Below are positions 7,054 to 47,509 of a stretch of DNA of 64,000 bases, one piece after another. Source of the stretch: Chloroflexota bacterium (GTDB taxonomy: Bacteria; Chloroflexota; UBA11872; VXOZ01); contig OZ244145.1 of assembly GCA_965216245.1 (NCBI GenBank), forward strand, positions 2,449,055 to 2,513,054. The letters run 5' to 3'. Made by a program: the position numbers and the translations under genes. The notes below the pieces were generated by a model. The model was given only the letters and a program-made list of their open reading frames with translations. It did no database searches and was not told where the DNA came from. Numbering within the stretch: position 1 is the stretch's first letter; the number at the start of each line of letters is the position of its first letter.

Positions 7054-7105
7054 CGGTCAATCTGGCTTGTAGGGACCACTTTGAAACGAATGCACGAGGT
7101 AAACC

Positions 7106-7933
7106 ATGTTCTCACTTGGGGTAATGACCGATGAAGTCTCGCAGGATTTTGCGCATGCGCTCGACGTGATCGAGGAGTTCGGTGTGCGCACCGTTGAGTT
7201 GCATAGCATGTGGGACAAGAATGTCTGCGATCTGGACAGCCACGAGCTGACGCAGGTATTGCACATGGTGCGGCAGCGAGGCCTTGCCGTGTGCGACATT
7301 GCTTCGCTCTTCCTACGCTGTCCCATTGATGATTTGGACGCCTACAACGAGCACATCACGGTCTTGGAGCGCTCAATCCAGATTGCGCCGCTCTTCGATT
7401 GCCAGCTTGTGCGCTGCTTTTCGTTCTGGCGCGAAGGCGATCTCTCTGCCCACTGGGACTCCATCCTCGAGCGTCTGGAACTGCCGGTGCGCATGGCGGA
7501 GTCCGCTGGCGTGACGCTGGCATTCGAAAATGTGCGCTCGTGCAACATCGGTACCGGCGCGGAGACTGCGCGCTTGATGGAGACAGTCAACTCGCCAAAC
7601 CTGCGGGTGATCTGGGACCCGGGGAATGCGTACGTTTCCGGCGAGGCGCGGCCCTATCCGGACGGCTACGCGGCGGTGAAGCCCTGGATCGTGCACGTGC
7701 ACGTCAAAGATGCGGTGCTGGGCACCGACGGCAGTTCTGTATGGAAGCCCATTGGCGCGGGTAAGGTGGACTACGCGGGACAACTCAGGGCACTGGCGGA
7801 CGACGGCTACGAAGGCGTGGTGTCGCTGGAGACCCACTACTACCCGGAAAACGGCACACGCGAGCAGGGCAGCCGCGAGTCGTTTGCCGGTCTGCAGGAG
7901 ATTTTGTCCGAGCAGGGGATTGTGCCCAGCTAG
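7106..7933 (+). CDS. sugar phosphate isomerase/epimerase (xylose-isomerase-like TIM barrel)
   Basis: 'VTLAFENV', 'IVHVHVKD', 'VVSLETH'. Confidence 0.8.
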   Translation: MFSLGVMTDEVSQDFAHALDVIEEFGVRTVELHSMWDKNVCDLDSHELTQVLHMVRQRGLAVCDIASLFLRCPIDDLDAYNEHITVLERSIQIAPLFDCQLVRCFSFWREGDLSAHWDSILERLELPVRMAESAGVTLAFENVRSCNIGTGAETARLMETVNSPNLRVIWDPGNAYVSGEARPYPDGYAAVKPWIVHVHVKDAVLGTDGSSVWKPIGAGKVDYAGQLRALADDGYEGVVSLETHYYPENGTREQGSRESFAGLQEILSEQGIVPS

Positions 7934-8016
7934 GCTCGAGACGACGGGCACGCGGTATGATGATAGTTTCGTTACAATAAGAGCGTGTAGCTTCAGTATC
8001 CCAGGGAGAGTGCGCC

Positions 8017-9411: not shown

Positions 9412-9447
9412 GACAACGACTGCAAGGCAGGTACGGTTGAGGCCCAG

Positions 9448-10379
9448 TTAGAAGTGACCCTGTTTCAATACCTTGTCCAGGTCAGGGCACTTATCGTCAA
9501 ACATGAGTTGCACACTGTCAACCAGACGTTGGAATACGTCCGCATGGTATCGAGAAGAATTCAGAAAAGTAACGTATTCGCTTCTGTTTTGTTGTCGTTC
9601 TCTCGCGGTCCGATACGCTTGCCGAATACTGGAAGGGATACGTTTGGCTTTCCTCGCAATTAGAACATCATCAATCTGTGTAGACACTATGGAAACTGGG
9701 GACATATCTAGGTAGTCACAGACAAGAAAGTAAAGGGACGACGGTACTGCAATCTTGAGGTCCCGGCTGGTGGCAACTGCTTCTTGAAACATGGTCTTAT
9801 CTAGATTTGTCTTACACTCAATGCACACATATCCGAGATGGGATTCCACGCGCTCACTGTCCTCGAAGTTTTCGTTGAAGGATGTCATGATGTCATTAGG
9901 TAAAGGCGTTTACCAAGAATAAAGTCTTGGTTCTTAGTTCGAAGAGTGGGGCGGCCGCCTGCGCCAGGACTGGTAAGTGACGATGTGAAACTTAGACCAG
10001 CGTACGTATTGCGTGGGCCAAATTCAAGACTTCTGTCTGCCAAGTTCAGTGCTCGGTAAAGCAGTTGAGGCAAAAACTCCTCTAGAATTGTATTGTCTAG
10101 TTTGAGTTGGCCTTTCTGTCTGTAAAGGAAGTCTTCGGGACTGTCGAATACGAGGTCAAGCTCAACAAAGTTCTTATAGTGATTAGTCGCATAGACTAGC
10201 TGCTTGACCGCATCCTTACGTCCAATTTGCACATTCTCAAGCTCGCTAATCCATTGCCTATAGCGTTGCAAAGCCTCGCACACTCTCGATTTATCGGCTT
10301 CAGGTAGTCGTTGATTATTGAGTAGCGCTTTGAGTTTGTCACTGTGTGGCGTTGGCAGGTTTGGCGCAGCGCTACTCAT
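9448..10379 (-). pseudogene. type II restriction endonuclease (PD-(D/E)xK) split into 164-aa and 146-aa ORFs by a +8 frameshift
   Basis: ORF 1 ends '...TKNQDFILGKRLYLMTS*' and ORF 2 starts 'MTSFNENF...LGYVCIECK'. The putative catalytic D and ExK therefore lie in different ORFs. Deleting one copy of the 8-bp duplication restores a single ~307-aa frame. Confidence 0.6.
9881..9896. repeat. exact 8-bp tandem duplication GATGTCAT GATGTCAT at the endonuclease ORF junction
   Basis: Read directly: 9881-9888 equals 9889-9896. On the coding strand this is ATGACATC x2. Confidence 0.95.
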
Positions 10380-11617
10380 GCGGATACTCCCCTTTCCTTC
10401 ACCATCATTACGTCCTTTCTAGACTGGTATTTTTCGTAGGATATTCCGTCAAAATAGGGTGTGCCGGTAATCTCACTAATTTGGGAGACTGCATCGCCAA
10501 GTAGGGCATGATTGTCTTCAGGTACGGTCTTCCGTGCTAAAGCGAGAGCTTGTAGCGCGATATCTCGTCCTAGCTTGGTAGTAGATTCAAAGCCACTTTG
10601 TTGATCGTTTCTCTGCAGATTCAGAATGTCCTCGCGAATCGATGTGCCAAAGCGATTCGTGAATACTCTATGCTGACGAAGAATAACGTCGAACATCCTC
10701 GAACCATGCGCGATTTGCGCAAGAATGTCCGCATTGTAGAACGTGGCACCGAGCACTTTGGATTGATAACCAAGAATCATAATGGCTCGACCGGATGGTT
10801 TTAGAACCCGAGCTAATTCGTGTATCGCATTAGCCATGTCAATGCAGTATTGGACAACAGTGTAGAAGCGATTGCTTCGATTAGCTCGATTAGAGCCTAT
10901 TTCCGATCGCGCAACCCGCAGTAGATTCCAGCCGAGTACTTCTACTGAGCGTCTATAGTTTTGATGGTAATTGAAGACGTTGATATAAGGCGGCGACGTT
11001 AAGACAAAGTCAACAACCTTGTCGTCCAATGGTAAGTTTCTGGCATCCTGAAGGTCTACCTCTATCCTCTGATCTGAATAAGGAAGGTTCCGTACTAACT
11101 TAGATAGAGCCGCGTACTTGCCTTGCACAAAACTATTGGTGACGTGACTGTTGTGAACGTCCAGAATCACTACGAGTGCATTAAGCAGAATCTTCGCAGG
11201 GCGGCTTAGATTCTTACCAATAGACACCACCCTCCGTTCAATGTCTTCAAGCGGCGGCTCATCCTCGCGTGAAATAGTAATCGGAAACTCAGAATTGACT
11301 TGGCGCCGCAGTTCACTTATTGTTGTTTCGCGCTCCATGGGATGCACGTTGGCAATTTCATAGAGCTTGCTGAAACACCAAGCGGAAGGGTTAATCTCGT
11401 ACCCAAAGGCAGCCAGTTTCGCTAAAGCCGCTTCGTGCAACACTGTCCCGCTGCCAGCAAACGGGTCAAGTACCGTTGAGCCAGTGTCACAATAGGCTTT
11501 GAGCAAGTATTCGATTAGCTGAGGAGAAAATTGACCGCGCCAGGGAAACAGATTAGAGCGCCTCTTATCCTCAATGTTTAGCAGCGATTGTGAGAGTGGC
11601 TTAGTAAAGTCCTTCAC
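10376..11617 (-). CDS. N6-adenine/N4-cytosine DNA methyltransferase (motif I before motif IV)
   Basis: 'LDPFAGSGTVLHEAA' (motif I) near residue 50 and 'LTSPPYINVFNY' (motif IV) near residue 205. ATGA overlap with the downstream endonuclease ORF. AT-rich islet. Confidence 0.85.
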   Translation of the reverse strand: MKDFTKPLSQSLLNIEDKRRSNLFPWRGQFSPQLIEYLLKAYCDTGSTVLDPFAGSGTVLHEAALAKLAAFGYEINPSAWCFSKLYEIANVHPMERETTISELRRQVNSEFPITISREDEPPLEDIERRVVSIGKNLSRPAKILLNALVVILDVHNSHVTNSFVQGKYAALSKLVRNLPYSDQRIEVDLQDARNLPLDDKVVDFVLTSPPYINVFNYHQNYRRSVEVLGWNLLRVARSEIGSNRANRSNRFYTVVQYCIDMANAIHELARVLKPSGRAIMILGYQSKVLGATFYNADILAQIAHGSRMFDVILRQHRVFTNRFGTSIREDILNLQRNDQQSGFESTTKLGRDIALQALALARKTVPEDNHALLGDAVSQISEITGTPYFDGISYEKYQSRKDVMMVKERGVSA

Positions 11618-11696
11618 AAGAGTGTCTTCCAGAATTTGCGACCGAAGATAACCGTTCCCAATTATACTATTCCCTAGAGATTGGAGAAGTATTGAG

Positions 11697-12686
11697 ATGA
11701 ACGCTTCTGCGAACGAACAGTCCTATGGCGGGCCGGAACAAGAAATCTTCAAGCACGCGTTCTCCGATCCGATTATCGAGAACGAGATGCTGTATCCGGC
11801 GCTGACGACGCTCGATGACATATACGAGGCTAATGCCACTCTGCTCATGCCGGTCGAGCATTTCTTTACGGCGTACGAGAACCTGGAAATCGAGTCGGCG
11901 GAGTCGCTGGTGCTCGATGGCGGGGCTACGCACCTCTTGCGCGTTACGTACACCCTTGGCGGCGCCACGTATCACGGCTACGCCTATGCGCCTGCCGCCC
12001 CGCAGACGGACCGGCCGGCCTCGCTGATCATCCCTGGGAGCGGTCTCAATTGCTCCGAGCCGATCTACCGCAAAGATCCGGCGAGCTACCACGACGGCAT
12101 AATCGACGCGCTGGGCGAGGGCTTCATGAACTACGTGTTCATTAAGCCTAACGAGGACTGCCTGGCCTTCCACAACGGCGAAGGCAAGGTCAACGTCGCC
12201 TTCTTTGTGAATTGGCTGCTCAACAATGCCACCTCCTACTCCGCGGCGTACGTCGTGAGCGCCATGGCCATCACCAAGTACCTCCAGGGGCGGCATGAAT
12301 CTGTGGTGGTTGCCGGGCTTTCGCAAGGCGGCGGGGCGGCACTGCTCACGTCTCTGCAGTCGCAACCCACGGCCGCGGTCATTGCCTCCGGCTTTTCCGT
12401 AATCATGGAGCGCATCCACTGGTCGGGGCACAACCAGATCATCATCCCCGGCATCGGCCAGGCCTACAGCAATGAGAACGTGCGAGAGAAAATCAAGGCT
12501 TCGCCCACGCAGTTCCTCTTCACCTACGGCAGGCAGGAACACGTGATCTACCGCCTTGAGGCAGAAGAGCACTATAGCTGCGACTTCCTCGCCGACTGCT
12601 CCAATGTGCGCTGCGAATCCCACGACGACGGCCACATCTTTCATGTTGACATAACAAGCGACTTTTTGCGCGGCCTCGGCATGTAA
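11697..12686 (+). CDS. alpha/beta-fold hydrolase (esterase-like)
   Basis: Nucleophile elbow 'GLSQGG' and distal 'HDDGH'. Chosen over the mirror minus-strand ORF 11667..12644. Confidence 0.65.
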   Translation: MNASANEQSYGGPEQEIFKHAFSDPIIENEMLYPALTTLDDIYEANATLLMPVEHFFTAYENLEIESAESLVLDGGATHLLRVTYTLGGATYHGYAYAPAAPQTDRPASLIIPGSGLNCSEPIYRKDPASYHDGIIDALGEGFMNYVFIKPNEDCLAFHNGEGKVNVAFFVNWLLNNATSYSAAYVVSAMAITKYLQGRHESVVVAGLSQGGGAALLTSLQSQPTAAVIASGFSVIMERIHWSGHNQIIIPGIGQAYSNENVREKIKASPTQFLFTYGRQEHVIYRLEAEEHYSCDFLADCSNVRCESHDDGHIFHVDITSDFLRGLGM

Positions 12687-12796
12687 ACGGCTGGTTTAGG
12701 CACGTGCGGAGGCGGCGCTGTGGTCGCATGGGGAAGGCACGGCTAGTTATGACCGGCCCGTATCGTCGCGGCGCAAGGCGATGGGGTTGAACGGCA

Positions 12797-14749
12797 ATGA
12801 GTGCGATAGAGCACTATACAGACGAATGGACTCCCCTCAACCCCGCAATCCTGGAGGCGCACCGACCGGGTTCCAACGCGGTAGTGGCGGCGAATTGCTC
12901 GCCAGCGCAGGCTACGGTAGGAACGTGGCAGTGCGTGGCGATGCGAGTGAGCCTCGGCCCCGAGGGGTTGTGTGAGGGCGATGCCCTGGTCGTGCAGTCT
13001 GCGACGCGCGGCTTGCAGTCCTGGCCGGTGTTGCAGCACCTCATGCCGGCAGAGGCGGGATACACCACTGCCGAGACCGCTTCGGGAAGGCGCGTGACCT
13101 GCGTTGTGGCCGGGCAGCACGTGCGCATGGTCGCGGCAGAGCTGCTTCCCGCCGGAGACACTCTCTGTCTTACGTACGGCGACCGGCGCGCCGGCGGGCC
13201 GGGCATCAAGATGACGCTGGCGGCGCTCCGCCAGTGGTTTCGTATTCTTTACGTGCCGCAGAATGGCGCAGGTGCCCGCGAGGTGGTTGCAAAGCCACCG
13301 TACGTTGACCTGCTGCCGGCGGCGGCGGTCGGTCTGGACGTCTTGGCCCCAAGCCATGCTCGACGAGGAGAGGAATTCACGCTCGTCGTTAAGGCGGTAG
13401 ATGAACATGGCAACACGGTCGCGCCATTGGCCGAACCCGCAGCTATCTCTCCTGTAATTGGCGTCGAGTGCCCTCCCAATATCACCCTAAACGAGTGCGA
13501 TCGCGCTGTTCGACGCACAACCGTACTGCTCACCGAAGAGCTGCCGCCCACCGGGCGGTTGCGCCTCGTCGTTCGCCAACCCAATAGTGGCACCGTAGGA
13601 TTCAGCAATGCGGTGGAGGTGCTCCCCGAAGATAACCCCTCCGACCGCATCTTCTGGGGCGATTTGCATGCGCATACCTCTCACGGCCACGCGTACGGCG
13701 AGATCGAAGACCTCTACCATTACGCGCGCGATGAGGCGCGGCTCGACTTCGTAGCGCATGTGGAGCACTACACGCGCGCGGGCGAGTGGCTGCACCCGTG
13801 GTGGCGGCGGCGCTATCCCGAATGTCAAACGGTTGAAGACTTCGTCCAGCGCTCCTGGCAGGAGCGTCTGGCGCAGGCGCGGAAGTTCGATGCGCCGGGT
13901 CGGTTCGTGCCGTTGCTGGGTTTCGAGTGGGCGCACACCACGGGGCATCTCAACGGCTTCTTCCCCGGTTTGGAGGCGCCGCTTGTCTATCCCACGAGCT
14001 TTCGCGATCCGGCGATGACCCCTGCTCACCTCAAAGCGCTGCTTGCAGGACATGAGTGGTTCGGCGTGCCCCACCATACCGCCTTCCCGCTGGGTCGGGG
14101 TACCTTGGGCGGGTTCCGTTGGGAACTCTTCGATCCTGAGACCATGCCCTGCGTGGAGATTGCGTCCAAGCAAGGGAACGGTGAGTACTTCGGCGCGCCG
14201 TACGCGGCGCTGCCATCGGGAGTAGGGGGCACAATACGCGAGGGGTTGGGAAGAAAACTGCGCTTTGGCTTCGTGGGCGCAACGGATACGAATATCGCGC
14301 GGCCGGGCTCGTTCACGGCCCAGGAAAAACGCCAGCGGCTGCCGGGACTGACGGCGGTGTTTGCGCCTGCCCTGGAGCGTGAGTCGATCTACAACGCAAT
14401 CCGCCAGCGGCGTTGCTACGCTACCCTCGGCGGCAGACCTATCTTACGCTTCTCTATCAACGGCGCGTTCATGGGCGAGTCGTTGCGCTTGGCACGTGCC
14501 GACACCGTGAAGCACATCGTGTGCGACGTAGCCGGCACGGCAGAGCTGGAGCGCGTGGAATTGATCAAGAACGGCGAACCGTTCTTTCAGTTCGTTACCA
14601 CGGACACCGGCGTCCACAACCGCACGTACGACTACCGCGAAGAGTTCCCCGACATGAACCCCAGCCAAGCAGGCGACTACTACTATCTGCGCGTGCAGCA
14701 ATTCGACGGCGCCCTCGCCTGGTCAAGCCCCATCTGGATCGACCTGTAA
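12797..14749 (+). CDS. DUF3604-like (PHP-fold-like) metal-dependent hydrolase
   Basis: 'IFWGDLHAHTSHGH' and 'FVAHVEH', at the size typical of DUF3604 proteins. Confidence 0.65.
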   Translation: MSAIEHYTDEWTPLNPAILEAHRPGSNAVVAANCSPAQATVGTWQCVAMRVSLGPEGLCEGDALVVQSATRGLQSWPVLQHLMPAEAGYTTAETASGRRVTCVVAGQHVRMVAAELLPAGDTLCLTYGDRRAGGPGIKMTLAALRQWFRILYVPQNGAGAREVVAKPPYVDLLPAAAVGLDVLAPSHARRGEEFTLVVKAVDEHGNTVAPLAEPAAISPVIGVECPPNITLNECDRAVRRTTVLLTEELPPTGRLRLVVRQPNSGTVGFSNAVEVLPEDNPSDRIFWGDLHAHTSHGHAYGEIEDLYHYARDEARLDFVAHVEHYTRAGEWLHPWWRRRYPECQTVEDFVQRSWQERLAQARKFDAPGRFVPLLGFEWAHTTGHLNGFFPGLEAPLVYPTSFRDPAMTPAHLKALLAGHEWFGVPHHTAFPLGRGTLGGFRWELFDPETMPCVEIASKQGNGEYFGAPYAALPSGVGGTIREGLGRKLRFGFVGATDTNIARPGSFTAQEKRQRLPGLTAVFAPALERESIYNAIRQRRCYATLGGRPILRFSINGAFMGESLRLARADTVKHIVCDVAGTAELERVELIKNGEPFFQFVTTDTGVHNRTYDYREEFPDMNPSQAGDYYYLRVQQFDGALAWSSPIWIDL

Positions 14750-36491: not shown

Positions 36492-36860
36492 GTGGCGTCC
36501 AAAATTGCAATGGATCACTTGAATACAAGCTATCGATTTATCGAACAAGCGCAAGAGGAATTTGAGAAGGGCGACATTCTTCAAGCTTCGGAGAAGGCCT
36601 GGGGTGCAGCAGCACGAGCCGTCAAAGCTGCTGCTGAGCAAAGAGGCTGGGAGCACAGGAGCCATAGGCACCTCTTTGAGAGCGTGGCTAAGATTGCAAG
36701 CGAGACTTCAGATGGCGAATTGAGAATGCTCTTCTCAGCGGCGAACACGCTTCATCAGAACTTCTATGAGGGTTCGCAGAATGAGGAGTTTGTCCAAGAC
36801 AACATTCAGCATGTGCTGGCGCTAGTAAACAAACTGACAAAGTTCGTGGTCGAATCCTAA
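36492..36860 (+). CDS. PaREP1-like (HEPN-related) helical protein
   Basis: 'EEFEKGDILQASEKAWGAAARAVKAAAEQRGW' and 'ANTLHQNFYEG'. GTG start after GGAGAGG. AT-richer islet. Confidence 0.5.
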   Translation: MASKIAMDHLNTSYRFIEQAQEEFEKGDILQASEKAWGAAARAVKAAAEQRGWEHRSHRHLFESVAKIASETSDGELRMLFSAANTLHQNFYEGSQNEEFVQDNIQHVLALVNKLTKFVVES

Positions 36861-36872
36861 GGAGAAGAGAGT

Positions 36873-37124
36873 GTGAACCAGTTTCTTGTAAGTCAACTCG
36901 AATTGGATGACCCCAATTGGTCATCCAACACTGAGGTCATACAGGGGTCGCATGGAGAAATCACCGCTGTCAAGATTACTCTTGTTGTGAAGCGCCGTAC
37001 GCGTACTGGTCTGGCCAGAGTGCTCTATGATCGGGTCTCCTTAACCTTTGACGCAGTGGAGGAGGCCACAGAGAAAGCGTTTGCACAAGCTGCAAGCCAA
37101 TTCGGCATCGTCGCACCGCAATAG
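36873..37124 (+). CDS. hypothetical 83-aa protein, translationally coupled partner of the PaREP1-like gene
   Basis: GTG at 36873, 8 nt after AAGGAG and 12 nt after the upstream stop. No recognisable motif. Confidence 0.4.
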   Translation: MNQFLVSQLELDDPNWSSNTEVIQGSHGEITAVKITLVVKRRTRTGLARVLYDRVSLTFDAVEEATEKAFAQAASQFGIVAPQ

Positions 37125-38052: not shown

Positions 38053-38820
38053 ATGCTTGAGTCAGATGACCTCGCCCAACTCTACGATCTTGAATACGAC
38101 GACTGGGACGAGGACAACACGTTCTGGCAGAGCTTTGCCGTGCGTACGGGCGGTCCAATCGTCGAGCTTGGCTGCGGCACGGCCCGCGCCCTGGCCCCAT
38201 TGGCGCAACGCGGCTATAGCGTTGTCGGCATCGATTCTTCACGGGCCATGCTGGAACGCGCAGAAGAACGGTTCCAAGCATATGGCATTGACGACGAAGA
38301 TTTCCAGCTTGCGTGTGAACCTATGGAGTCCGCCGCGATTTCCGAGCCGGGGCGCCTCGTCTTCTCGGCGCTGAACGCCTTCGCCCACTTGACGACGCCC
38401 CTCCAACAGACTCAAGCGCTCGACGCCGCCCACCGCATGCTCCACCCTGAGGGGCTGCTCGTGCTCGATCTCTTCAATCCGCTCACCCAGGAGTATGACG
38501 AACGCGATCGCATGGTGACGCTGCGCAACGTCTTGGCAGACCCGCGGACCGGCGCACCCATTCAGCAATTTGAGGTGTGGGAAGTGGACCGCGAAACGCA
38601 GGTGGTGCAGACCACGTATCTTTACGACCACTTACAGGCCGACGGCAGCATTCGCCGCACTACAACCACGTTCCCCATGCGATACTCCTACCGCTATGAG
38701 ATCGAGGCAAGGCTGGCTCAGTCGAACTTTGCAGTCGAGAACGTCTTCGGCTCGTATGAGGCCGATCCGTTTACGGGCAGCGAGGAAAAGATGATCTTCG
38801 TGGCCCGGCCGCAACGGTAG
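38053..38820 (+). CDS. class I SAM-dependent methyltransferase
   Basis: Motif I 'IVELGCGTARAL', followed by 'VVGIDSS'. Confidence 0.8.
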   Translation: MLESDDLAQLYDLEYDDWDEDNTFWQSFAVRTGGPIVELGCGTARALAPLAQRGYSVVGIDSSRAMLERAEERFQAYGIDDEDFQLACEPMESAAISEPGRLVFSALNAFAHLTTPLQQTQALDAAHRMLHPEGLLVLDLFNPLTQEYDERDRMVTLRNVLADPRTGAPIQQFEVWEVDRETQVVQTTYLYDHLQADGSIRRTTTTFPMRYSYRYEIEARLAQSNFAVENVFGSYEADPFTGSEEKMIFVARPQR

Positions 38821-38924
38821 AGTTGGGCTATAGTTGCACGTCCTTCAATATTAAAACGTTGGCTATGATTGTGACAGACCTTGTCTTTCGGTGATTACGA
38901 CAAGCGCAAGAGATATCAGGCGCC

Positions 38925-38993
38925 GTCATTCCGGCGTAGGCCGGAATCCAGCATCGCCACATGCCCTGGACTCCGGCGAAAGCCGGAGTGACC
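38925..38993. repeat. two adjacent family-1 REP-like hairpins
   Basis: gtcattccggcgtaggccggaatcc (38925-38949) and ggactccggcgaaagccggagtgacc (38968-38993). Confidence 0.8.
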
Positions 38994-39272
38994 GGTAACT
39001 TCCGACGACCTCTTCCATATTCATTCTTGGGATTGTCACGGCTGGAGGACCCGTATTTGACACACGAGTCTGTGGGGAGATTCGCTTTCGCGGCCTTGCC
39101 TCTCCATTGCCCAAATTTCCGGGGAACTGCCTGACACCAACAATTCCAAGTACGCCACGGTCCCCTACCGGAGCAGTGCCTTTGCGTCATTGGGAACGCG
39201 ACCGTCGAACGTGCTATTCTGAGTGAGAGCTTTTCCCTGAGTGCACTGTATTAGATGTGAAGATAATCTCCT

Positions 39273-40151
39273 ATGGCAACAAAAATCGAACGAAAGCCGG
39301 ACTGGATCCGTGTCCGCTGGAAAGAGGGCGACCAGTACCGCGAACTCAAGCAGATCATGCGCGGTCTGGACCTGCATACTGTCTGCGAAGAGGCGCGGTG
39401 TCCGAACATCAGCGAGTGCTGGAATTCGCGCACGGCGACGTTCATGATCCTGGGCGATACCTGCACCCGCGCGTGTAGTTTCTGTGCGGTAAAGAGCGGC
39501 CGTCCCGCGGGTTTGGACAAGATCGAACCCATCCGCGTGGCCTGGGCGGTGAAGCAGATGGGGCTGCGCCACGCCGTGATTACGTCCGTGGCTCGCGATG
39601 ACTTGGAAGACGGCGGCGCGCAGATCTTTGCCGAGACCATCCGCAAGGTGCGGGAACTCAACCCGGATTGTTCTATAGAAGTGCTCATTCCCGACCTGGC
39701 CGGCAAACACGACGCGCTGAAAGAGGTGGTGGCCGCCAAGCCGGCAATCCTCAACCACAACGTGGAAACCGTGCCCCGCCTGCAACGCCGCGTGCGCCCC
39801 AAAGCCCGCTACGAGCGCAGCCACTGGGTGCTGCGCACCGCCAAGCAGCTCGACGCAGACATTCTCACCAAGTCCGGCATGATGCTCGGCTTGGGCGAGA
39901 CCTGGGACGAGATTGTGCAAACGCTCACGGACATGGCCGCAACGGGTGTGGACATATTCACCATCGGCCAATACCTGCGCCCTTCCAAGAAGCACCAGAA
40001 GCTGGAACGCTACTACCGCCCCGAAGAGTTTGTCGAACTCAAGGATATCGGCGAGTCCCTCGGCATCCGCCACGTCGAGTCCGGCCCCCTCGTCCGCTCC
40101 TCTTACCACGCCCGCGACCAAGTGGAGACACTGCAGAATAAGGCAGAGTAG
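39273..40151 (+). CDS. lipA: lipoyl synthase
   Basis: '[13 protein letters not shown]' and the radical-SAM motif 'CTRACSFC'. Confidence 0.95.
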
Positions 40152-40245
40152 CCGAAATCGTGGGTTGTAAGTTTCAAAGAATTGAGAAGTGGAGGATTGA
40201 TCACTTCGCAATTCACATTAGATCTCCTGAACTGAGGAAGCAGGT

Positions 40246-41163
40246 ATGAATCTGATCAATGACATTCAAGAGGCGGCAGTTGATTCCAGTGTTGACTTAT
40301 CCACATTGCTCCGGAAGTGTAAGCTCTTGGCTGCCAGGATACGCAATGATGACCTTGCAGGCTGGGTTGACCATGAACTAAACGGCTACCCTTCGGCGGA
40401 CAATCTCCCCCCATACAGGGTCATTAAGGTACAGTCATTTGGCAATTTCTACGGTCCATTTGGAAGAGCTCAATTGGGCGTACCAATACCCAGTGTTTCA
40501 CTTCCATCAGAGTACCGAGAATACGCAACTACTGAGTACCTTATGGAAGGGGCAAGCTCCCTGTCGGCTTCGCTCGAGAGTAATTCTTCTAACCCAAATA
40601 TCCAATATACATGGTCCCCTGACCTTATAGCCTACGTGGGTACGAACATTTATAAGGGCTATACATGCCTAAGTGCTTGGAAAAGCTTTTCTCGTCACAA
40701 CATCACGGGGATACTTGACATTGTGCGCAATAGAATACTGGACTTTACCATTTCAATTGAAGCCGAAATCCCGGATGCAAGTAATGCTTCGTCACTTGCT
40801 GCAATCTCTCCAGATAGGTCGCAGCAGATATTCAAGACCGTGATCATGGGAAGTGTTGGAAATTTGGCTTACGGTAGTTCTGATTTTTCTCAGGCGACAG
40901 AATTGCATGTGAGTACAGGGGACTTCTCTGGTCTAAGGGAATGTCTAGAAAAATTGCGGGTATCAACCGAAGACATTGATGAACTGGAAACTATACTACA
41001 AGAAGACGGCCCGCCTGAACAGAGTGGCGCATTTGGTTACCGAACAGCCCGATGGGTCGGAAATATGGTTTCCAAGGCACTATCCGGAACCTGGGACATT
41101 GGTACATCGGTTGCAGCCGATGCACTGAAGAAGGCTATTTTCTCTTACTATGGTTTGGGTTAA
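40246..41163 (+). CDS. AbiTii-domain protein (abortive-infection-associated N-terminal domain)
   Basis: 'IQEAAVDSSVDLSTLLRKCKLLAARIRNDDLAGWVDHELNGYPSADNLPPYR'. AT-rich. Confidence 0.65.
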   Translation: MNLINDIQEAAVDSSVDLSTLLRKCKLLAARIRNDDLAGWVDHELNGYPSADNLPPYRVIKVQSFGNFYGPFGRAQLGVPIPSVSLPSEYREYATTEYLMEGASSLSASLESNSSNPNIQYTWSPDLIAYVGTNIYKGYTCLSAWKSFSRHNITGILDIVRNRILDFTISIEAEIPDASNASSLAAISPDRSQQIFKTVIMGSVGNLAYGSSDFSQATELHVSTGDFSGLRECLEKLRVSTEDIDELETILQEDGPPEQSGAFGYRTARWVGNMVSKALSGTWDIGTSVAADALKKAIFSYYGLG

Positions 41164-41325
41164 GCAGTGGTTGAAGAATTCGATATGCTAGTCAAAACTA
41201 ACATGGAATTCTCTCAGGTAGTTCAATCAACCGAGTTGAGGCGCAAGTGGAATGTCGAAGCAAATAGCCTTCCTACTTGATGGGGAATAGAGACCAGCTT
41301 ACTCTAGCAGGCCAAAACTAAATCC

Positions 41326-43008
41326 TCAAAGAGTCTTGATCTTTGTTAGTAGTTCGTTTGCTGTTTCAGAAAGTAGCTGTGCCCGTTCGATTAGGAAATC
41401 ATGGTAGTTCTCCACGCTCCAATCTCGCTGGATGCGGTCACTACTATAGTCATCCGTTACGAATCTCTCAGGAATTAGATGGGAACGAAGTAGATCCGAC
41501 TTGATCTGAAACTGCTGGATGTATTTCCAAGGCTCCTTGCCTGATAGCTTGCTAACATTTGTGCGTTCATTCAACACAGTAATATTGGCTATAGCTTGAA
41601 TATCATCTTCATCGAGATTCTGCTGTTTGAGCACTCGACGAGGATAGATGTGGTGCCATTGGGGTTGAAAACCAGTAGAGACTATGGCGCCTGTATTGTC
41701 AAAACTAATGCGTGTTTCACTTACCCAATCTCGGGCGCTCCGGTCAAAGAGCATAAGATAGAGCATGAGACTTTGGAATCTATTGCCTGCTCGGTCGTAG
41801 CGGCTTAAGAACTCTTCTTCGTCGATCTCATTGGATACTCGCAGTCGTTCCAGCAGTCTATTGAGTGATGATTCAAAGTTTGGAGAAGACTTGATGGCGC
41901 GCACATCTTCGTCCAAGCTCGTGAGAGCGGATCCACTATAGCGACCATCTCTATTTGCGAGCAAAAACCAATACATCGCTTGGCCGAAGAGGTAATCAGG
42001 CTTGCCGTTCCAGTGGTCATGAAGTACAAACAACGGTATCAAGCTGTTTGAAGAAGGTAGTAAGTCAGACGTTAGGATGCCCAATTCTGCGAGTCTCTTT
42101 AGCACATCAGTGATGGCAATAGTCGTCTGTTTCCATACTGTTGGCAAGTTGCCCGGATCCCAAAAGCTGCTTGGCACTTCTTTTAGACGGGCACGTCCAT
42201 ATCCAATTCCTGTCATAGTCCGAATGAATACACCGGGATCAAGGTCCCACCCTCTATCTTCAAGGTCGGTAAGAAAGTGCAAGTAGTCTTCTCTTACCCA
42301 TTGAGGGTTGCGCACTGCTGCGAGGGCCAAGACAACATCTGCCTCTTTTACTCGCGTGCCGGCGCGGTTCAGCCTAGAGAAAATCTCGGCAACATCTTCA
42401 ATTTCGTGAGTGATCTTGATAATAGGGATTTCGCGTGCCCGAATCTGCCAAATTCGCTGCATTCGACCATGTATTAAAGCGAACTTTAGCATTGCTTCCT
42501 GCATATCATCCGTTAGTTGGTTCGCTAGCTGTTGGGCAAGGAGGGTCAGATCCTCAACTTTAGGGGAACTGAGAATACGGCGTATCTCGACCCATCTAGG
42601 GTCTCTTTGACGGACAGGATTAGTGAGAGCGAATTCAAGGGAATCTACTCCTTCCTCGGGCAGCAGGTTGACCATCACGTTGTAGCGTGTGAGAGCCCTA
42701 TTCCACCCTTCAGCGTCAGCCCACCAATATGGTTTCTGACCGCATAGGATACAGAGAGCAGTTATGCGCTGTTGACCGTCAACTATCCAGAGCGAAGATT
42801 GTGCACCTTCTGCAGTTCTAGATTGTACGTATTCGGAGGAGTTCCAAAGAAGAAATGACCCAACGGGATAGTCGCGATAGAGGGACTCAGCCAAGAGCCT
42901 TACTTGTACAGGATCCCACACAAAGTCTCTCTGGAATTCTGGTACGTCCAAGCTCTTGCTGACTGCCTGTCTTACAATTTCATGTACCTGTATTTGTTCA
43001 ATCGCCAT
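41326..43008 (-). CDS. GmrSD-type type IV (modification-dependent) restriction enzyme: DUF262 plus a DUF1524 His-Me finger
   Basis: N-terminus 'DVPEFQRDFVW' and 'VDGQQRITAL'. C-terminus 'WHHIYPRR...IANITVLNERTN'. AT-rich. Confidence 0.8.
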   Translation of the reverse strand: MAIEQIQVHEIVRQAVSKSLDVPEFQRDFVWDPVQVRLLAESLYRDYPVGSFLLWNSSEYVQSRTAEGAQSSLWIVDGQQRITALCILCGQKPYWWADAEGWNRALTRYNVMVNLLPEEGVDSLEFALTNPVRQRDPRWVEIRRILSSPKVEDLTLLAQQLANQLTDDMQEAMLKFALIHGRMQRIWQIRAREIPIIKITHEIEDVAEIFSRLNRAGTRVKEADVVLALAAVRNPQWVREDYLHFLTDLEDRGWDLDPGVFIRTMTGIGYGRARLKEVPSSFWDPGNLPTVWKQTTIAITDVLKRLAELGILTSDLLPSSNSLIPLFVLHDHWNGKPDYLFGQAMYWFLLANRDGRYSGSALTSLDEDVRAIKSSPNFESSLNRLLERLRVSNEIDEEEFLSRYDRAGNRFQSLMLYLMLFDRSARDWVSETRISFDNTGAIVSTGFQPQWHHIYPRRVLKQQNLDEDDIQAIANITVLNERTNVSKLSGKEPWKYIQQFQIKSDLLRSHLIPERFVTDDYSSDRIQRDWSVENYHDFLIERAQLLSETANELLTKIKTL

Positions 43009-43243
43009 GGGTCATCCTAGTACTCATTTGCATTCAACTCTTAGACAATTCTTGGAGCGGATTGCCTCTTCCCGTTATAGATAGTATCCTTATGAGGGAA
43101 TAACCACAGACTGACTCTAGCACAATTGACTTCCTACAATCATGGTGAGAGATTAAGAGGCAACGAAACAGCCCACGGTCTTGGGATTATGCGTTTACTA
43201 CCTAAGAAGAAATTAAGAGGATTCTTACAAAAAGGACACGGCT

Positions 43244-43567
43244 TTGGCGAAACAGATTCAGTCCGCGCCACAGATACCGGTACCGCGAGAGCAAATTGCT
43301 GCGGTCTGCCTGCGGTATCACATTCGCACGCTGGCGCTAATTGGCTCCGTATTGAGCGAGGACTTTTCGTCCAACAGCGATGTTGACGTGCTCGTGGAGT
43401 TCGAGCCGGGGCGGACGCCCGGATTCTTTGCGCTGGCACGGATCGCGCGGGAGCTTTCACCGCTCTTCGGCGGACGCGAGGTAGACCTGCGGACCCCGCA
43501 AGATCTGTCCCGGTATTTCCGTAATGAAGTAGTCAACACGGCATATCCGGTCTATGGAAACTCGTGA
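43244..43567 (+). CDS. minimal nucleotidyltransferase (MNT) antitoxin-like protein
   Basis: 'LIGSVLSEDFSSNSDVDVLVEF' (GS...DxD). TTG start. 14-nt overlap with the HEPN gene. Confidence 0.8.
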   Translation: MAKQIQSAPQIPVPREQIAAVCLRYHIRTLALIGSVLSEDFSSNSDVDVLVEFEPGRTPGFFALARIARELSPLFGGREVDLRTPQDLSRYFRNEVVNTAYPVYGNS

Positions 43568-43943
43568 CCGCGTGAGAATTCAGCACATGTTGGAGGCGGC
43601 CAAAGAAGCGCTAGCATTTGCCCATGAGAAGGAGCGCGACGACATTGAATCGAATCGCATATTGGCGCGCGCACTTGTGGAGTGTTTGCGTGTTGTGGGT
43701 GTGGCTGCACGGCAAGTTTCGATAGAGACCCGCCAACAACATCCAAGAGTTCCATGGCAAGATATCATTGGCATGCGCAACAGACTAGTACACGAGTACT
43801 TTGACGTCAACTATGACGTCATTTGGCAAACGGTGACAGCAGAATTGCCCAATTTGGTTGAAGTGCTGGAACAGCAAAAATTTGACAACACAACAGCCCC
43901 ATCCATGCGCCTTGATAGACCTGGGCATGGTGCCGTATCGTGA
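43554..43943 (+). CDS. HEPN (DUF86) toxin-like protein
   Basis: 'GMRNRLVHEY' (Rx4H). Confidence 0.85.
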   Translation: METRDRVRIQHMLEAAKEALAFAHEKERDDIESNRILARALVECLRVVGVAARQVSIETRQQHPRVPWQDIIGMRNRLVHEYFDVNYDVIWQTVTAELPNLVEVLEQQKFDNTTAPSMRLDRPGHGAVS

Positions 43944-44625
43944 CGCCTGGGAGTTGCAGCGGCGCTTGGCGGCGGCGCGGCAGACGGACGCGATCCCCGA
44001 CGTTGTGCTGCTGCTGGAGCATCCGCACACCTACACGATAGGTCGCAGGGGAGATGACAGTGAGGTGCTCGCCTCACCGGAGCACTTACGAAGGCTAGGT
44101 GCGACCGTGGTTGAGGTGGATCGCGGGGGCCTGGCGACCTATCACGGACCGGGGCAACTGGTGGGATATCCCATCCTCGACCTGCGGCCGCGCAACCGCG
44201 ACGTGCACCGCTACCTGCGGGACCTCGAACAGGCCCTTATCGACACGTTACAGGAGTGCGCCATACCGGCGCAGCGCATCGAGAAGAAGACGGGCGTATG
44301 GGTGGGTGACCGCAAGATTGCCTCCATCGGCGTACGTTTCAGCCGTTGGATCAGCAGCCACGGCTTCGCTCTCAACGTCACCACCGATCTCAGCTACTTT
44401 TCCCATATTGTGCCCTGCGGCATGCCGACGGTTACGATGACGTCTGTTGCACAGGAGACGTCCGTTGCACAGGAGGCCGACACAGTAAATATGGCTTGGC
44501 TCCGCGAGCGCATAGCGCACCACCTGGCGCAGGTCTTCGCGCTTCGCTACCTGGACGACTTTCCACCCACGCTGTGCGACATGCTTGCGGCAATTCAAGA
44601 AGATAGAGTGGAAGCGCTGCGGTAA
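43858..44625 (+). CDS. lipB: octanoyltransferase
   Basis: 'LGMVPYRDAWELQ', 'LLLEHPHTYTIGRRG', 'DRGG..TYHGPGQLVGYPI' and 'KIASIGV'. The true start is probably the TTG at 43882 (MTTQQPHPCALIDLG). Either start lies inside the HEPN 3' end. Confidence 0.85.
   Translation: MKCWNSKNLTTQQPHPCALIDLGMVPYRDAWELQRRLAAARQTDAIPDVVLLLEHPHTYTIGRRGDDSEVLASPEHLRRLGATVVEVDRGGLATYHGPGQLVGYPILDLRPRNRDVHRYLRDLEQALIDTLQECAIPAQRIEKKTGVWVGDRKIASIGVRFSRWISSHGFALNVTTDLSYFSHIVPCGMPTVTMTSVAQETSVAQEADTVNMAWLRERIAHHLAQVFALRYLDDFPPTLCDMLAAIQEDRVEALR
44443..44478 (+). repeat. in-frame 18-bp tandem duplication in lipB (SVAQET / SVAQEA)
   Basis: tctgttgcacaggagacg / tccgttgcacaggaggcc, 15 of 18 identical. Confidence 0.85.
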
Positions 44626-45006
44626 TTGCCACGGCCGCAGGTCTTCCGCCGCTACCTTGCCGCAGTCTTGCGCGGGGTGTGATTTCCTCAAGAGCCGTTC
44701 ATGGTTCGACCCCGCGGCAGGCTCAGGACAGGCAGACTCACCACGTACGGAATCTGTGCCTACTAACCACGAAGTGGGGGCCCATACGCCACGCACGGAA
44801 TCCCCGTACACCCCGAACGGGAGCCCCGCTCTTTTCGAATGGCCAATCCGGCTAGGCATGATCGTCTGGAGCGCAGTTCACTGCCCAATCGCAACTTGCT
44901 CGCAGCCAGCATGCGGGGTACACTTGCGCTCAATGCAGCGTTTTCAACGAAGTCAGCCTTCACAGATCGAGCGCAGCCCATTGCAACCACGGCACGGTCT
45001 TCTTCG

Positions 45007-46230
45007 ATGAAGCCGTCATCCGCCCATGTCTTCACCCTCTCGTGGGCTGCAATGTCTGCCTTCTTCGTTATCCTCTTCTTCAATGTTGGCGCTGCCAATC
45101 CGCCGCGCGCGCAACTGCCGGTCTACGTAGAGAGCGCGCTGGCAGCGGCGCCAATTGTCACCTCAATTGTCCAATCCACGTTTCACATCGTCTTTGCGGC
45201 GATGCTGCTGGTTGGCGGCTTTCTCGCCGACCGTTTCCGTCCCAAGCGGACATTTGTCATTGGCTTGCTGACACCTGCCGTTGCCGGCTTCTTGCTGATT
45301 GCGCAGGAGGTCTGGCAGCTCGCGCTCGTAGCGGCGCTCACGGGCGCCTTCTTTGCGTTGCACGCTGCCGGCAGTCGGGCCTATCTCGTGTTGGCGGTGC
45401 CGCTCAAACGCATGGGACTGCTCGGCAACCTCTACGAGCTTGGGTTTACGTTGGGCGCAGCTCTCGGCAATGCCGCCGTGGGCATTATCGCCGCGCGGTC
45501 CGGCTTTCCACTCGCTGGCATTATCATCGTAGCGTTGGGATTTCTCACCGCTCTTGCCGCGCAGCTTTGGCTGCCATCGGTCAAGCCGAAGGTAGTGAGT
45601 GCCACGCCCATAACGCTAGGGAGCTACTGGCAGATGGTGCAGCGCCGCTCGGTGCAACTCTTGCTCCTCTTGCGCGCTCTGCCGACTATCTACTGGGCCA
45701 CCGGGCAACTGGTGATCGGCATTCAACTCTTGCGATTGACAGAGTCTCCCGTAGCGCCGGCGCTTTTCTACGCGGCAAGCCTCTTGGCGATTGGCACCAC
45801 CATGATGCCTGTGGGCTGGGCTGCCGATCGATGGGGCAGCGCGCACCCGGTAGTCGCGTCTACTGTGCTGGTGATTGTCGGGTCGGTGTTGGCGGCAATA
45901 TTCATAGGCAATGTATGGGGGCTGGCCTGTGGGGCCTTTGTGGGGCACCTCGGCGCGTGGTGGCTCTCCGGTCTCTTTCCGCTGCTCGTTGCTGAAAGCG
46001 GAGCGCACGACGAACAAGGCCGATTGACTGCCGTCACGGAGATGGCGTGGAGCCTTGGCGCGGTGGTGGGCGCTTTGGGAGCCGGCGTGCTCTTGACCCT
46101 CCACCTGAGCGCGCCGTTCTTGATGGCGGCATGGCTGAACATACCAACGCTTTTCGTCGCCATGCTCGTCGCGAGCGGCGGGCACCGGGCTATCTCCAAA
46201 GAGCCGGTCGCAGCGAGAGAAGCAGGATAG
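45007..46230 (+). CDS. MFS transporter, paralogue 1
   Basis: Multi-TM hydrophobic protein collinear with the next gene. ATG at 45007 preferred; the track start at 44839 runs through repeat-derived sequence. Confidence 0.7.
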   Translation: MKPSSAHVFTLSWAAMSAFFVILFFNVGAANPPRAQLPVYVESALAAAPIVTSIVQSTFHIVFAAMLLVGGFLADRFRPKRTFVIGLLTPAVAGFLLIAQEVWQLALVAALTGAFFALHAAGSRAYLVLAVPLKRMGLLGNLYELGFTLGAALGNAAVGIIAARSGFPLAGIIIVALGFLTALAAQLWLPSVKPKVVSATPITLGSYWQMVQRRSVQLLLLLRALPTIYWATGQLVIGIQLLRLTESPVAPALFYAASLLAIGTTMMPVGWAADRWGSAHPVVASTVLVIVGSVLAAIFIGNVWGLACGAFVGHLGAWWLSGLFPLLVAESGAHDEQGRLTAVTEMAWSLGAVVGALGAGVLLTLHLSAPFLMAAWLNIPTLFVAMLVASGGHRAISKEPVAAREAG

Positions 46231-46264
46231 CGCACGAAGGTTAAAAGGGAGGAAAATGTAGTAA

Positions 46265-47509
46265 ATGGTCTCAAAGTTGCACGCGCGTATGGGCAAATTA
46301 GGCACGTGGCGGCCGGTCCTGATAATGTTCGGCCTGCTCTTCCTAAACCTGACATTCATGAGTCCGGCGCAGGGCCTTCTTCCGGTCTTTGTCGAGAAGG
46401 TGCTCGAGCGGTCTCCCTTCTTTACCGCGATTGTCGTCTCGCTGAACACGGCGGTCTATGGCGTCATGCTGTTGGTCGGCGGAGTGCTGGCCGACCGTCT
46501 GGGCGCGAAATGGACGTTAGTTCTGGGGTTCTGCGGGGCGATCGCGGTGGGTCTTATGCTGCGATTGGAGTCGGCATGGATGTTGCTTATCATCGCGCCG
46601 GTGTACGGTCTGCTTTTCTCGTTTATGACCACGGGGAGCCGCTCGTACCTAGCGCGTGCCCTGCCGTTGACGCAGATGGGCATCGGCGGCGCTCTGTATT
46701 TCTTGAGCCTCATCGTCTCTATGGCGGTTGGCAGCGCAATAGGCGGCAGAATCGCGGATACGGTGGGATTTGGCACATTGGGCCTGATTTCCATTATCGC
46801 CGGTGTTGTGCTCGTGCCGCTGACTGCCTGGTTGCTGCCTTCCGTCCACGCCGAACCCGATAAGACGGAGTCCGGTGACGAATCTCCGCAGAACAAAGCG
46901 AGGTTCACGGACTACCTAGTCATGTTGCGCGACTCTCGTATTCTCGCCCTCTGCGGCCTGCGCTTCTGTGCAACGTACTTCTACGGCACAATGAACCTGC
47001 TCCTGGTGTTGCAACTCTTTCGGCTCACAGAATCGGTAACGTTTGTGGGGCTCTACGGCAGCGTGATCCTGTTTATCATCGGGCCGACACAGCTTGTAAT
47101 CGGCTGGATTGCGGATAAGCGCGGCCGCGAAGGGCCGGTGCGCATGGCAGCCGTGCTCGTGATGGGTGGCGCCGTGCTCATTACGCTCCTCATTGATAAC
47201 GTTTGGGGACTGGCCGCCGGCGGTCTTTTGGCTAATATGGGCGCCTGGTGGTTTTCAGGGCTCTATCCGAAGCTGGTGGCGGAGGCCGGCCCGCCGGAGG
47301 AGCAAGGACGCCTCATCGCCATTACGGAGTTCTTCTGGGCTGTGGGCATTTTGGCGGGTACGCTTATCTCCGGCGCACTGGTATTGGTCTTTCTGCAACT
47401 GCCGTTCATTGTCTGCATAGGGGTCACGATTCCCATGTTCCTGTTGGCCTTGCTGGTTGCGCGGGGTTACCATCGTGCCCCCGATCAAAACCCTGGCGCT
47501 ACAGGCTGA
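46265..47509 (+). CDS. MFS transporter, paralogue 2
   Basis: Shares blocks with paralogue 1 ('LLVGG.LADR', 'QL.RLTES', 'GAWW.SGL.P.LVAE.G..(D/E)EQGRL.A.TE'). The start may be the ATG at 46289. Confidence 0.7.
   Translation: MVSKLHARMGKLGTWRPVLIMFGLLFLNLTFMSPAQGLLPVFVEKVLERSPFFTAIVVSLNTAVYGVMLLVGGVLADRLGAKWTLVLGFCGAIAVGLMLRLESAWMLLIIAPVYGLLFSFMTTGSRSYLARALPLTQMGIGGALYFLSLIVSMAVGSAIGGRIADTVGFGTLGLISIIAGVVLVPLTAWLLPSVHAEPDKTESGDESPQNKARFTDYLVMLRDSRILALCGLRFCATYFYGTMNLLLVLQLFRLTESVTFVGLYGSVILFIIGPTQLVIGWIADKRGREGPVRMAAVLVMGGAVLITLLIDNVWGLAAGGLLANMGAWWFSGLYPKLVAEAGPPEEQGRLIAITEFFWAVGILAGTLISGALVLVFLQLPFIVCIGVTIPMFLLALLVARGYHRAPDQNPGATG

Follow-up and report, generated by a model that had tools for sequence, protein, structure and literature searches.

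The lipA-lipB interval of an uncultivated Chloroflexota bacterium is a slotted variable region anchored by core genes and enriched in defence genes

We analysed the interval between lipA and lipB (40152-43943) in a 64-kb stretch of DNA from a Chloroflexota bacterium, referred to here as the window, together with the equivalent loci of its relatives. A first-pass annotation of the window had described an AbiTii-domain gene, a convergent GmrSD-type gene and an overlapping MNT/HEPN gene pair between these two genes of lipoate metabolism, and the positions and identities of all open reading frames (ORFs) were confirmed by the ORF list, Pfam, PADLOC and NCBIfam. The features of the locus are as follows.

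39273-40151, plus strand: lipA (lipoyl synthase), the left anchor; NCBIfam lipoyl synthase, 429 bits against a cut-off of 203
40152-40245, plus strand: spacer between lipA and the AbiTii gene, with a Shine-Dalgarno-like GAGGAAG ahead of the AbiTii ATG
40246-41163, plus strand: AbiTii-domain gene, 305 amino acids (aa); Pfam PF18864, E=1.6e-42; PADLOC AbiTii, 1.1e-41
41164-41325, no strand: spacer between the convergent AbiTii and GmrSD stop codons, containing the left copy of a direct repeat
41326-43008, minus strand: GmrSD/BrxU-like gene, 560 aa; Pfam GmrSD_N (PF03235), 1.5e-26; PADLOC HEC-05, 2.7e-31
43009-43243, no strand: divergent spacer from the GmrSD start to the MNT start, containing the right copy of the direct repeat
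43244-43567, plus strand: MNT (MntA-like) antitoxin gene, 107 aa; Pfam Polbeta/NTP_transf_2 (PF01909/PF18765); PADLOC PDC-S09
43554-43943, plus strand: HepT (HEPN RNase) toxin gene, 129 aa; Pfam HepT-like PF01934, 8.6e-22
43880-43883, plus strand: site of a 1-nt deletion at the HepT stop and lipB start, from alignment with relatives and metagenome k-mers
43881-44625, plus strand: lipB (octanoyltransferase), the right anchor; NCBIfam LipB, 199 bits against a cut-off of 155

The MNT and HepT genes overlap by 14 nt, and the lipB ORF opens at a TTG at 43858, the TTG at 43881 being the start homologous to that of relatives. The reported AT-richness of the AbiTii and GmrSD genes relative to lipA and lipB was reproduced, with a GC content at third codon positions (GC3) of 0.44-0.47 against 0.71-0.80: the AbiTii gene has a GC content of 0.466 and a GC3 of 0.444, the GmrSD gene 0.474 and 0.469, and the core genes lipA, lipB and MFS have a GC content of 0.59-0.62. 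HepT is intermediate (GC3 0.51) and MNT nearly host-like (0.67). One unitig of the public run X1 spans 39941-43273 with zero differences from the window, and a second contig from a different sample shows the identical gene order; the arrangement is therefore not an assembly artefact. The divergent spacer at 43009-43243 presumably carries both the GmrSD and the MNT promoters; consensus scans for promoters and terminators gave scores at or below chance and were not used.

Relatives were assembled from a LipB search of species-representative genomes, which gave one close (L001) and three distant genomes (L002-L004) among the matches listed, and from a LipB protein search that returned graded relatives from 93% down to 63% identity; the locus set also took in contigs with an identical MNT, AbiTii homologs and one member of the GmrSD cluster. 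Searching for exact copies of the window LipA matched no contig. L001 is a complete chromosome of a Chloroflexota metagenome-assembled genome (MAG), with about 95% nucleotide identity to the window and synteny over more than 20 kb, and the distant L002-L004 do not have the lipA-lipB arrangement. In total, 24 clade loci with LipB 63-97% identical to that of the window were compared, 18 of which hold lipA and lipB intact, the other six being cut by a contig end or having a fragmented lipA or lipB call. LipA in the clade loci that hold it is 92-99% identical to that of the window. The first-pass annotation had expected lipA and lipB to lie adjacent or close in relatives, and had named their adjacency in no relative as the outcome that would speak against its reading; none of the 24 clade loci, which reach down to 63% LipB identity, has the two genes side by side, and the gap between them is at least about 3 kb. 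The empty site that was sought in relatives is likewise absent from all 24.

The loci share a ground plan, which reads lipA, slot 1, a 249-aa class I S-adenosylmethionine (SAM) methyltransferase, slot 2, MNT, HepT and lipB. Slot 1 is a REP-rich spacer in L001, L005, L007, L010-12 and L014-19 and a 305-aa AbiTii gene in L008/9 and L020-26, while slot 2 either is empty or holds, on the minus strand, a 158-179-aa DinB-like gene (L011-15 and L026) or a 536-aa Schlafen/AlbA_2 gene (L006 and L016). The plan occurs without extra cargo in L001, L005, L007 and L017-19, and the outgroup L028 (LipB 63%) has kept lipA, a methyltransferase remnant, MNT, HepT and lipB. L022 has, in place of HepT, two AT-rich genes (204 and 301 aa) without a family match. 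At least six different interval contents are present among the clade loci, and in 18 of the 24 they are flanked by lipA and lipB plus the MTase_up and MFS genes. GC3 is 0.44-0.53 in the AbiTii, GmrSD, SLFN_AlbA_2, HepT and L022 genes and 0.71-0.80 in core genes; a host-like composition is found in the resident methyltransferase and the DinB-like gene, neither of which is a defence gene.

No tRNA and no Rfam match was found across the whole 64-kb window, no integrase or transposase domain in the four interval proteins by Pfam scan, and no recombinase in the gene calls where the window is syntenic with L001 and L005 (approximately 32.4-54.7 kb). The earlier statement that integrases, transposases, tRNAs and flanking direct repeats are missing from the site holds for mobility genes and for a repeat flanking the whole islet, which was found neither there nor at the homology breakpoints, but it overlooked an imperfect direct repeat that flanks GmrSD alone (41283-41309 and 43096-43122, 20 of 27 matches). 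This repeat can be extended to about 46 nt (41264-41309 and 43077-43122) and ends in ACTCTAGCA; its score was reached by none of 300 shuffles, which kept mononucleotide composition only. The motif was found nowhere else in the window or in L001-L028, save in the same haplotype in L027, and may be a scar of the original GmrSD capture. Altogether, the lipA-lipB interval is a long-lived variable region anchored by core genes, with a defence-enriched cargo and without mobility genes. All of its components belong to known families, and its architecture is that of a small-scale, core-gene-flanked defence hotspot.

Two of the alternative cargoes deserve description in their own right. The SLFN_AlbA_2 gene (L016 5204-6814 and L006 2143-3753; GC3 0.49) sits in the slot taken by GmrSD in the window and extends exactly from the methyltransferase stop to the MNT start codon; next to it, in L006, the MNT start codon position reads ATA and HepT is truncated. 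In L022, the place of HepT (8957-10857) is taken by the 204-aa and 301-aa genes (GC3 0.47-0.49) together with a 102-aa minus-strand ORF, none of which gave a Pfam match at gathering score or a PADLOC match, making them candidate defence or toxin genes in a third slot.

Among the genes of the interval, only GmrSD is clearly imported and lineage-specific. It gave no tblastn match in the other 26 lipA/lipB-region loci, and its nearest homologs (67% identical) are in other phyla; the family of approximately 560-aa proteins at 61-67% identity extends over Thermoflexus, Chloroflexus, Roseiflexus, Thermoleophilia, Bacillota, Bipolaricaulota, WOR-3 and others. We consider GmrSD foreign because of this lack of a match in 26 loci, the spread of its kin over many phyla and its GC3 of 0.47. 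Only three sequences are at least 90% identical to it, on the same three contigs that carry the window-type AbiTii. The GC content of GmrSD homologs in metagenomes is usually below that of their flanks, and no close homolog was found in IMG/VR phage sequences.

The window and its relatives cease to be homologous 2-15 nt past the lipA stop and become so again at 43245, which is base two of the MNT start codon, so that the right GmrSD junction falls at the first base of that codon. Against L020-25, nothing aligns between 41139 and 43244, and the divergent spacer at 43009-43243 is unrelated to the MNT-upstream spacer of all relatives without GmrSD. The window carries a spacer-GmrSD-spacer unit in place of the spacer-methyltransferase-spacer unit of relatives, and a word-7 blastn found no remnant of the 249-aa methyltransferase or of the relatives' spacers within the window spacers. 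To judge from these sequence comparisons, the event is a replacement of the resident 249-aa methyltransferase by GmrSD rather than an entry into an empty site.

In GmrSD, an N-terminal DUF262 domain (Pfam cut-off 33 bits) with DGQQR at residues 77-81, invariant in 25 homologs, is followed by a helical linker and a C-terminal His-Me-finger-like motif. The original assignment as a DUF262/DUF1524 protein stands for DUF262; for DUF1524, Pfam gives no match at E<=0.01, and the C-terminal assignment is supported instead by an HHxxP...N...NE..N pattern, whose invariant residues are H452, H453, P456, N475, N480, E481 and N484 (HHIYP at 452-456), and by a fold match to BrxU. The PADLOC HEC-05 match extends to residue 555. 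The profile match to BrxU (PDB 7P9K; 8e-18) has an alignment covering residues 12-333 only, and the Foldseek comparison of the AlphaFold model with BrxU is full-length (E=6.6e-12, 619 columns). HEC-05, the top-scoring PADLOC model for this protein, is the BrxU family, members of which protect E. coli from phages on their own (bioRxiv 10.1101/2024.01.29.577857). Like BrxU, the window protein is a single polypeptide of about 560 aa with DUF262 and its DGQQR, a linker and the His-Me-finger-like motif; unlike BrxU, to which it is 18-19% identical, it lies outside a BREX or Hma system, alone among housekeeping genes. We infer that it is a candidate type IV restriction enzyme, acting as a nucleoside triphosphate-dependent nuclease against modified phage DNA.

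The 249-aa methyltransferase was also considered as a DNA methyltransferase incompatible with a type IV enzyme, a conflict that could account for its loss to GmrSD. This idea was unsupported, as the protein matches only small-molecule-type class I SAM families (Methyltransf_25/11, UbiE, TehB and daptide MTase); it has no DPPY or PCQ motif as read by eye. Class I SAM methyltransferase paralogs, about 26% identical to each other, bracket lipA in relatives (window 38053-38820; L001 8202-8951), and the window has lost the downstream paralog and kept the upstream one.

Slot 1 has long been occupied by AbiTii, whose alleles are hyperdivergent. Alleles 62%, 55% and 51% identical to that of the window occupy the equivalent position in L020-25, L026 and L008, respectively, and relatives whose LipB is only 71-80% identical also have AbiTii in slot 1. 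Its ten best homologs (51-62%) share the 305-aa form, the next tier being at or below 47%; six of these ten lie on contigs identifiable as belonging to the clade, and four were shown to be at the equivalent site. Between the window and L020-25, the AbiTii coding region is about 68% identical in nucleotides and 62% in amino acids. The lipA-AbiTii spacer is 100% identical in L027; no alignment is possible with the spacer found beside the other AbiTii allele in conspecifics. AbiTii is AT-rich in every lineage (GC3 0.44-0.53) yet long resident, so AT-richness does not mean recent arrival. Its downstream neighbour is the convergent GmrSD in the window or the methyltransferase in relatives, and IMG/VR phage sequences contained a single homolog, at 41% identity.

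The AbiTii protein has the alpha+beta AbiTii domain at its N-terminus (residues 3-184) and a region of four helices at its C-terminus (residues 227-302). In lactococcal AbiT, both the abiTi and abiTii genes are required (PMC13064643). The window protein shares with it the alpha+beta AbiTii domain of about 180 aa and, like non-lactococcal AbiTii homologs, has an extra C-terminal helical domain; unlike lactococcal AbiT, it has no AbiTi partner gene, as no further ORF lies beside AbiTii in the window or any relative, and lipA ends 94 nt upstream. Fusions of AbiTii to HEPN domains have been described (c2405, with a conserved catalytic His, and Ymh, with Rx4-6H; Anantharaman et al., 2013, PMC3710099). 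A C-terminal HEPN domain of the c2405/Ymh kind was rejected for the window protein, whose C-terminal 120 aa, unlike those fusions, show no conserved His or Arg across 52 homologs and have neither a Pfam match nor a fold match. It is tempting to guess that AbiTii combines a sensor domain with a helical effector of the abortive-infection type.

The MNT-HepT module lies directly upstream of lipB in all clade loci, decayed or partly replaced in four. In both HepT allele classes, the HepT stop overlaps the GTG start of lipB (GTGA; 4-nt overlap). Owing to this clade-wide presence and to the overlap, we regard MNT-HepT as ancestral and not inserted. MNT-HepT-lipB looks like one operon conserved across the clade, which suggests co-transcription. 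An identical MNT protein occurs on four other contigs, where the upstream cargo is different. MNT carries the exact GSX10DXD motif (GS-VLSEDFSSNS-DVD) and HepT the exact RX4HXY motif (R75-NRLV-H80-E-Y82). These are the motifs of type VII toxin-antitoxin pairs, in which MntA adds adenosine monophosphate (AMP) to a tyrosine beside the RNase site (PMC7641770); HepT is accordingly a predicted RNase toxin, and MNT is predicted to add AMP to Tyr82. As in known MntA/HepT pairs, the antitoxin gene comes first, the genes overlap and the families are PF01909 and PF01934. Unlike those pairs, the module is fixed upstream of lipB, with the stop-start overlap in relatives; it has two alleles about 30% apart within one species-level population; and the toxin gene of the window, its stop codon lost, extends 63 nt into lipB.

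This loss is due to a 1-nt deletion, visible against four relatives with HepT of allele type A as a change from TTGTGACA to TTTGACA, which removes the HepT TGA stop together with the overlapping lipB GTG start, leaving lipB with the TTG at 43881 and lengthening HepT by about 20 aa. The undeleted form (G behind 43882) was absent from run X1 (0 of 20.7) and was found in X5, X8 and X10. Since the deleted form is the sole form in X1, at a depth matching that of the islet (20.7 vs 22.4), the deletion is real. The MNT start codon also differs, being TTG in the window and ATG in 10 of 11 compared relatives without GmrSD, with GTG in L011 and ATA in the decayed L006 copy as exceptions. The window HepT is of allele type A; conspecific strains have either type A alleles with 88-93% identity to it or type B alleles with 68-71%.

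The distribution of alleles over strains points to exchange through the flanks. Among strains with LipA 95-99% and LipB 87-97% identical to those of the window, AbiTii states and HepT alleles occur in all combinations: the second AbiTii allele is found with HepT-A in L020 and with HepT-B in L021 and L023, the absence of AbiTii with HepT-B in L001 and L005 and with HepT-A in L007 and L016-19, and the window-type AbiTii with HepT-A in the window and with HepT-B in L027. The window HepT shares 93% identity with the HepT of one strain having LipB at 87%, but only 69% with those of strains having LipB at 93-95%. Along the alignment of the window with L001, identity is 94-99%, falls to 59-82% over 43445-43945 and is 98% again at lipB. 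Between the window and L027, the AbiTii and GmrSD block shows 23 differences in 3092 nt (99.3% identity), with two spacers identical, whereas the flanks show 200 differences in 4199 nt (95.2%; Fisher p=2e-26 vs the islet). Taken together, the mosaic alleles and the L027 contrast suggest that turnover is driven by homologous recombination via lipA, the methyltransferase, MNT and lipB. Junctions across the loci fall at the lipA stop +2 to +15 nt, 12-19 nt before the methyltransferase start, at the methyltransferase stop and at the MNT start codon. In four of four metagenome runs, the k-mer depth of the islet is well below that of the flanks in a comparison that pools related strains and species at >=90% identity, which fits a minority haplotype polymorphic within mixed populations.

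The idea that three defence or toxin modules had accumulated at one site is thus borne out as far as the site is concerned, which is variable and holds alternative cargo in relatives, and has to be revised for the modules, since MNT/HepT is ancestral, AbiTii an old resident and only GmrSD lineage-specific. Similarly, the first-pass description of a defence sink is right in that this is a variable defence site; the insertion mechanism had been called unclear, and the recombination signatures point to exchange through the flanks. The probable explanation as a whole, in our judgement, is a slotted, core-anchored region whose content is renewed mainly by homologous recombination. DNA arriving from related strains would recombine through the conserved flanking genes and bring in whole slot contents, which would explain both the lack of an integrase, transposase or tRNA and the junctions at gene ends. 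AbiTii, as one of at least two very divergent alleles, resides in slot 1, GmrSD with its own spacers has taken over the methyltransferase and slot 2, and MNT-HepT (allele A) is the ancestral module beside lipB. The first capture of GmrSD from a distant donor would require an illegitimate or microhomology-based step. The three modules would act independently, GmrSD against modified phage DNA, AbiTii by abortive infection and HepT as a toxin restrained by MNT.

Several observations weigh against this explanation or parts of it. L027 is a metagenome contig from long reads at 11x, and a strain-collapsed flank consensus could mimic the contrast of 99.3% vs 95%; several of the HepT-A loci without AbiTii are low-coverage contigs (2-9x). 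Tracts that end exactly at gene ends are not predicted by a single RecA event, so that repeated events or selection would be needed, and the repeat flanking GmrSD could mark a site-specific or duplicative insertion. As for function, the AlphaFold model of AbiTii (pLDDT 84) has no fold match in the PDB, a sequence search of the PDB was also empty, and with no conserved histidine in the C-terminal region its effector chemistry is guessed. The NCBIfam equivalogs score below their cut-off of 60 (MntA_antitoxin 33.4 bits, HepT_toxin 32.1 bits), which places MNT/HepT in the broad family rather than as an equivalog of the Shewanella pair.

An insertion of GmrSD as a cassette on short repeats, whether by a distant recombinase or in an integron-like or duplicative manner, would take the place of homologous recombination for this gene. 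The direct repeat that brackets GmrSD, unmatched by the shuffles, speaks for it, as do the sharp junctions recurring at the same bases (the lipA stop and the MNT start codon) and the lone GmrSD homolog in L049, which is likewise wedged into an operon with no mobility gene near. We nevertheless hold such an insertion to be unlikely: neither the interval nor the 7-10 kb of synteny flanking it contains an integrase, transposase or tRNA, the repeat motif is confined to this haplotype as far as the window and L001-L028 are concerned and lies inside the replaced segment, away from the homology breakpoints at 41139 and 43245, and the SLFN_AlbA_2 cassette in the equivalent slot has no flanking repeat above chance. 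The shuffle controls, moreover, preserved mononucleotides only. A broader proposal builds on the same repeat and makes the fixed MNT-HepT the organiser of the hotspot, acting through the lipB overlap as an addiction anchor that penalises deletions from the slots, with the two alleles about 30% apart under balancing selection and GmrSD-type cargo arriving at defined junctions at gene ends via a repeat-guided cassette without a nearby recombinase; the GmrSD repeat and the ATG-to-TTG change at the MNT start would then be scars of that cassette mechanism. We regard this proposal as decidedly speculative and give it little weight.

Purely vertical descent, with all modules present in the clade ancestor followed by differential loss and fast divergence, is in keeping with the presence of MNT/HepT in all clade loci, with AbiTii at one site across lineages with 71-97% LipB identity and with the clade membership of those AbiTii homologs that can be identified by contig. 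It is very unlikely, given that the GmrSD, SLFN_AlbA_2 and L022 cargoes are each AT-rich and found in few near-identical contigs, that the next GmrSD relatives are in other phyla, that the HepT and AbiTii alleles are incongruent with the backbone (HepT 93% at LipB 87%; 69% at LipB 93-95%) and that, between two contigs, divergence in the islet is about one sixth of that in its flanks. That AbiTii and GmrSD, or all three modules, form one cooperating defence system is suggested by the presence of the window-type AbiTii and GmrSD on the same three contigs, in one 99.3%-identical block. However, the pair is convergently oriented, a survey of 80 metagenomic loci around GmrSD homologs found no AbiTii homolog in the vicinity, L008/9 and L020-26 carry AbiTii but no GmrSD, and BrxU-type GmrSD proteins act alone (bioRxiv 10.1101/2024.01.29.577857). 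Since AbiTii is missing from all 80 GmrSD loci and often stands without GmrSD, we conclude that the two are independent and that a joint system is highly improbable.

Homologous recombination through the conserved flanks, which we favour here, was also proposed by Johnson et al. for core defence hotspots (PMC10250203). Such hotspots lie between conserved genes, as do cDHS1 and cDHS2 of Pseudomonas aeruginosa (PMC10250203), and hotspots free of mobility genes are known from the E. coli pan-genome (PMC10121019). The lipA-lipB site resembles the Pseudomonas and E. coli hotspots in its core-gene bounds, its variable and defence-enriched content, its lower GC and the lack of a single mobile-element class. 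In contrast to these, it measures only 3-5 kb (the median there being 26 kb) and has 3-6 genes; resident housekeeping-like genes divide it into slots, it has no flanking tRNA or tmRNA, belongs to an uncultivated Chloroflexota host and contains an MNT-HepT pair that is fixed across the clade and apparently translationally coupled to lipB. It also differs from an integrative mobile element or genomic island in having no integrase, transposase, tRNA target or terminal att repeats.

Core-flanked hotspots without mobile signatures are known mainly from well-sampled pathogens. The lipA-lipB locus offers a miniature, legible example, with few genes, clear slots and many haplotypes in public assemblies. 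It indicates that strains with 95-97% identical core genes can carry, at one and the same site, defence alleles 40-50% apart in amino acid sequence, and that a housekeeping gene can acquire a toxin-antitoxin pair as its fixed leader. In practical terms the gain is a modest one, consisting of candidate GmrSD-like, AbiTii-like and AT-rich genes for defence assays and of a site for measuring recombination-driven turnover.

Some further observations concern lipoate genes elsewhere and the neighbourhood of the interval. L049 is an unrelated high-GC metagenome contig (18-7114) with a lone GmrSD homolog of 42% identity and a GC content of 0.50 against 0.63 in its flanks; the homolog separates the E1-beta gene from the E2 gene in a 2-oxoacid dehydrogenase operon, of which lipB is also part. 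In the distant relative L003, an Actinomycetes MAG, a single 551-aa ORF (9974-11629) has LipB-like and LipA-like halves in the order opposite to that of the window. Upstream of lipA, the window carries a low-GC (about 0.50) pair at 36492-37124, in which a 122-aa PaREP1-family protein (PF05942 in the precomputed calls of relatives) is followed by an 83-aa ORF; this pair is kept in L005, L016, L017 and L019-25 and may be a small toxin-antitoxin-like or HEPN-related module. The gap from the upstream methyltransferase to lipA contains two REP-like hairpins (38920-38998), ATTCCGGC-GTAG-GCCGGAAT and ACTCCGGC-GAAA-GCCGGAGT. The k-mer depth over 38734-38967 reaches 6,000-13,000 in four metagenome runs, compared with tens to hundreds nearby, indicating a very high-copy repeat, and similar REP-like motifs fill the lipA-methyltransferase spacers of relatives without AbiTii. 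Directly downstream of lipB, at 44839-47509, are tandem MFS transporter paralogs (463 and 414 aa; about 39% identical), which are kept in the closer relatives, with NUDIX and ABC genes in their place in L008 and L010.

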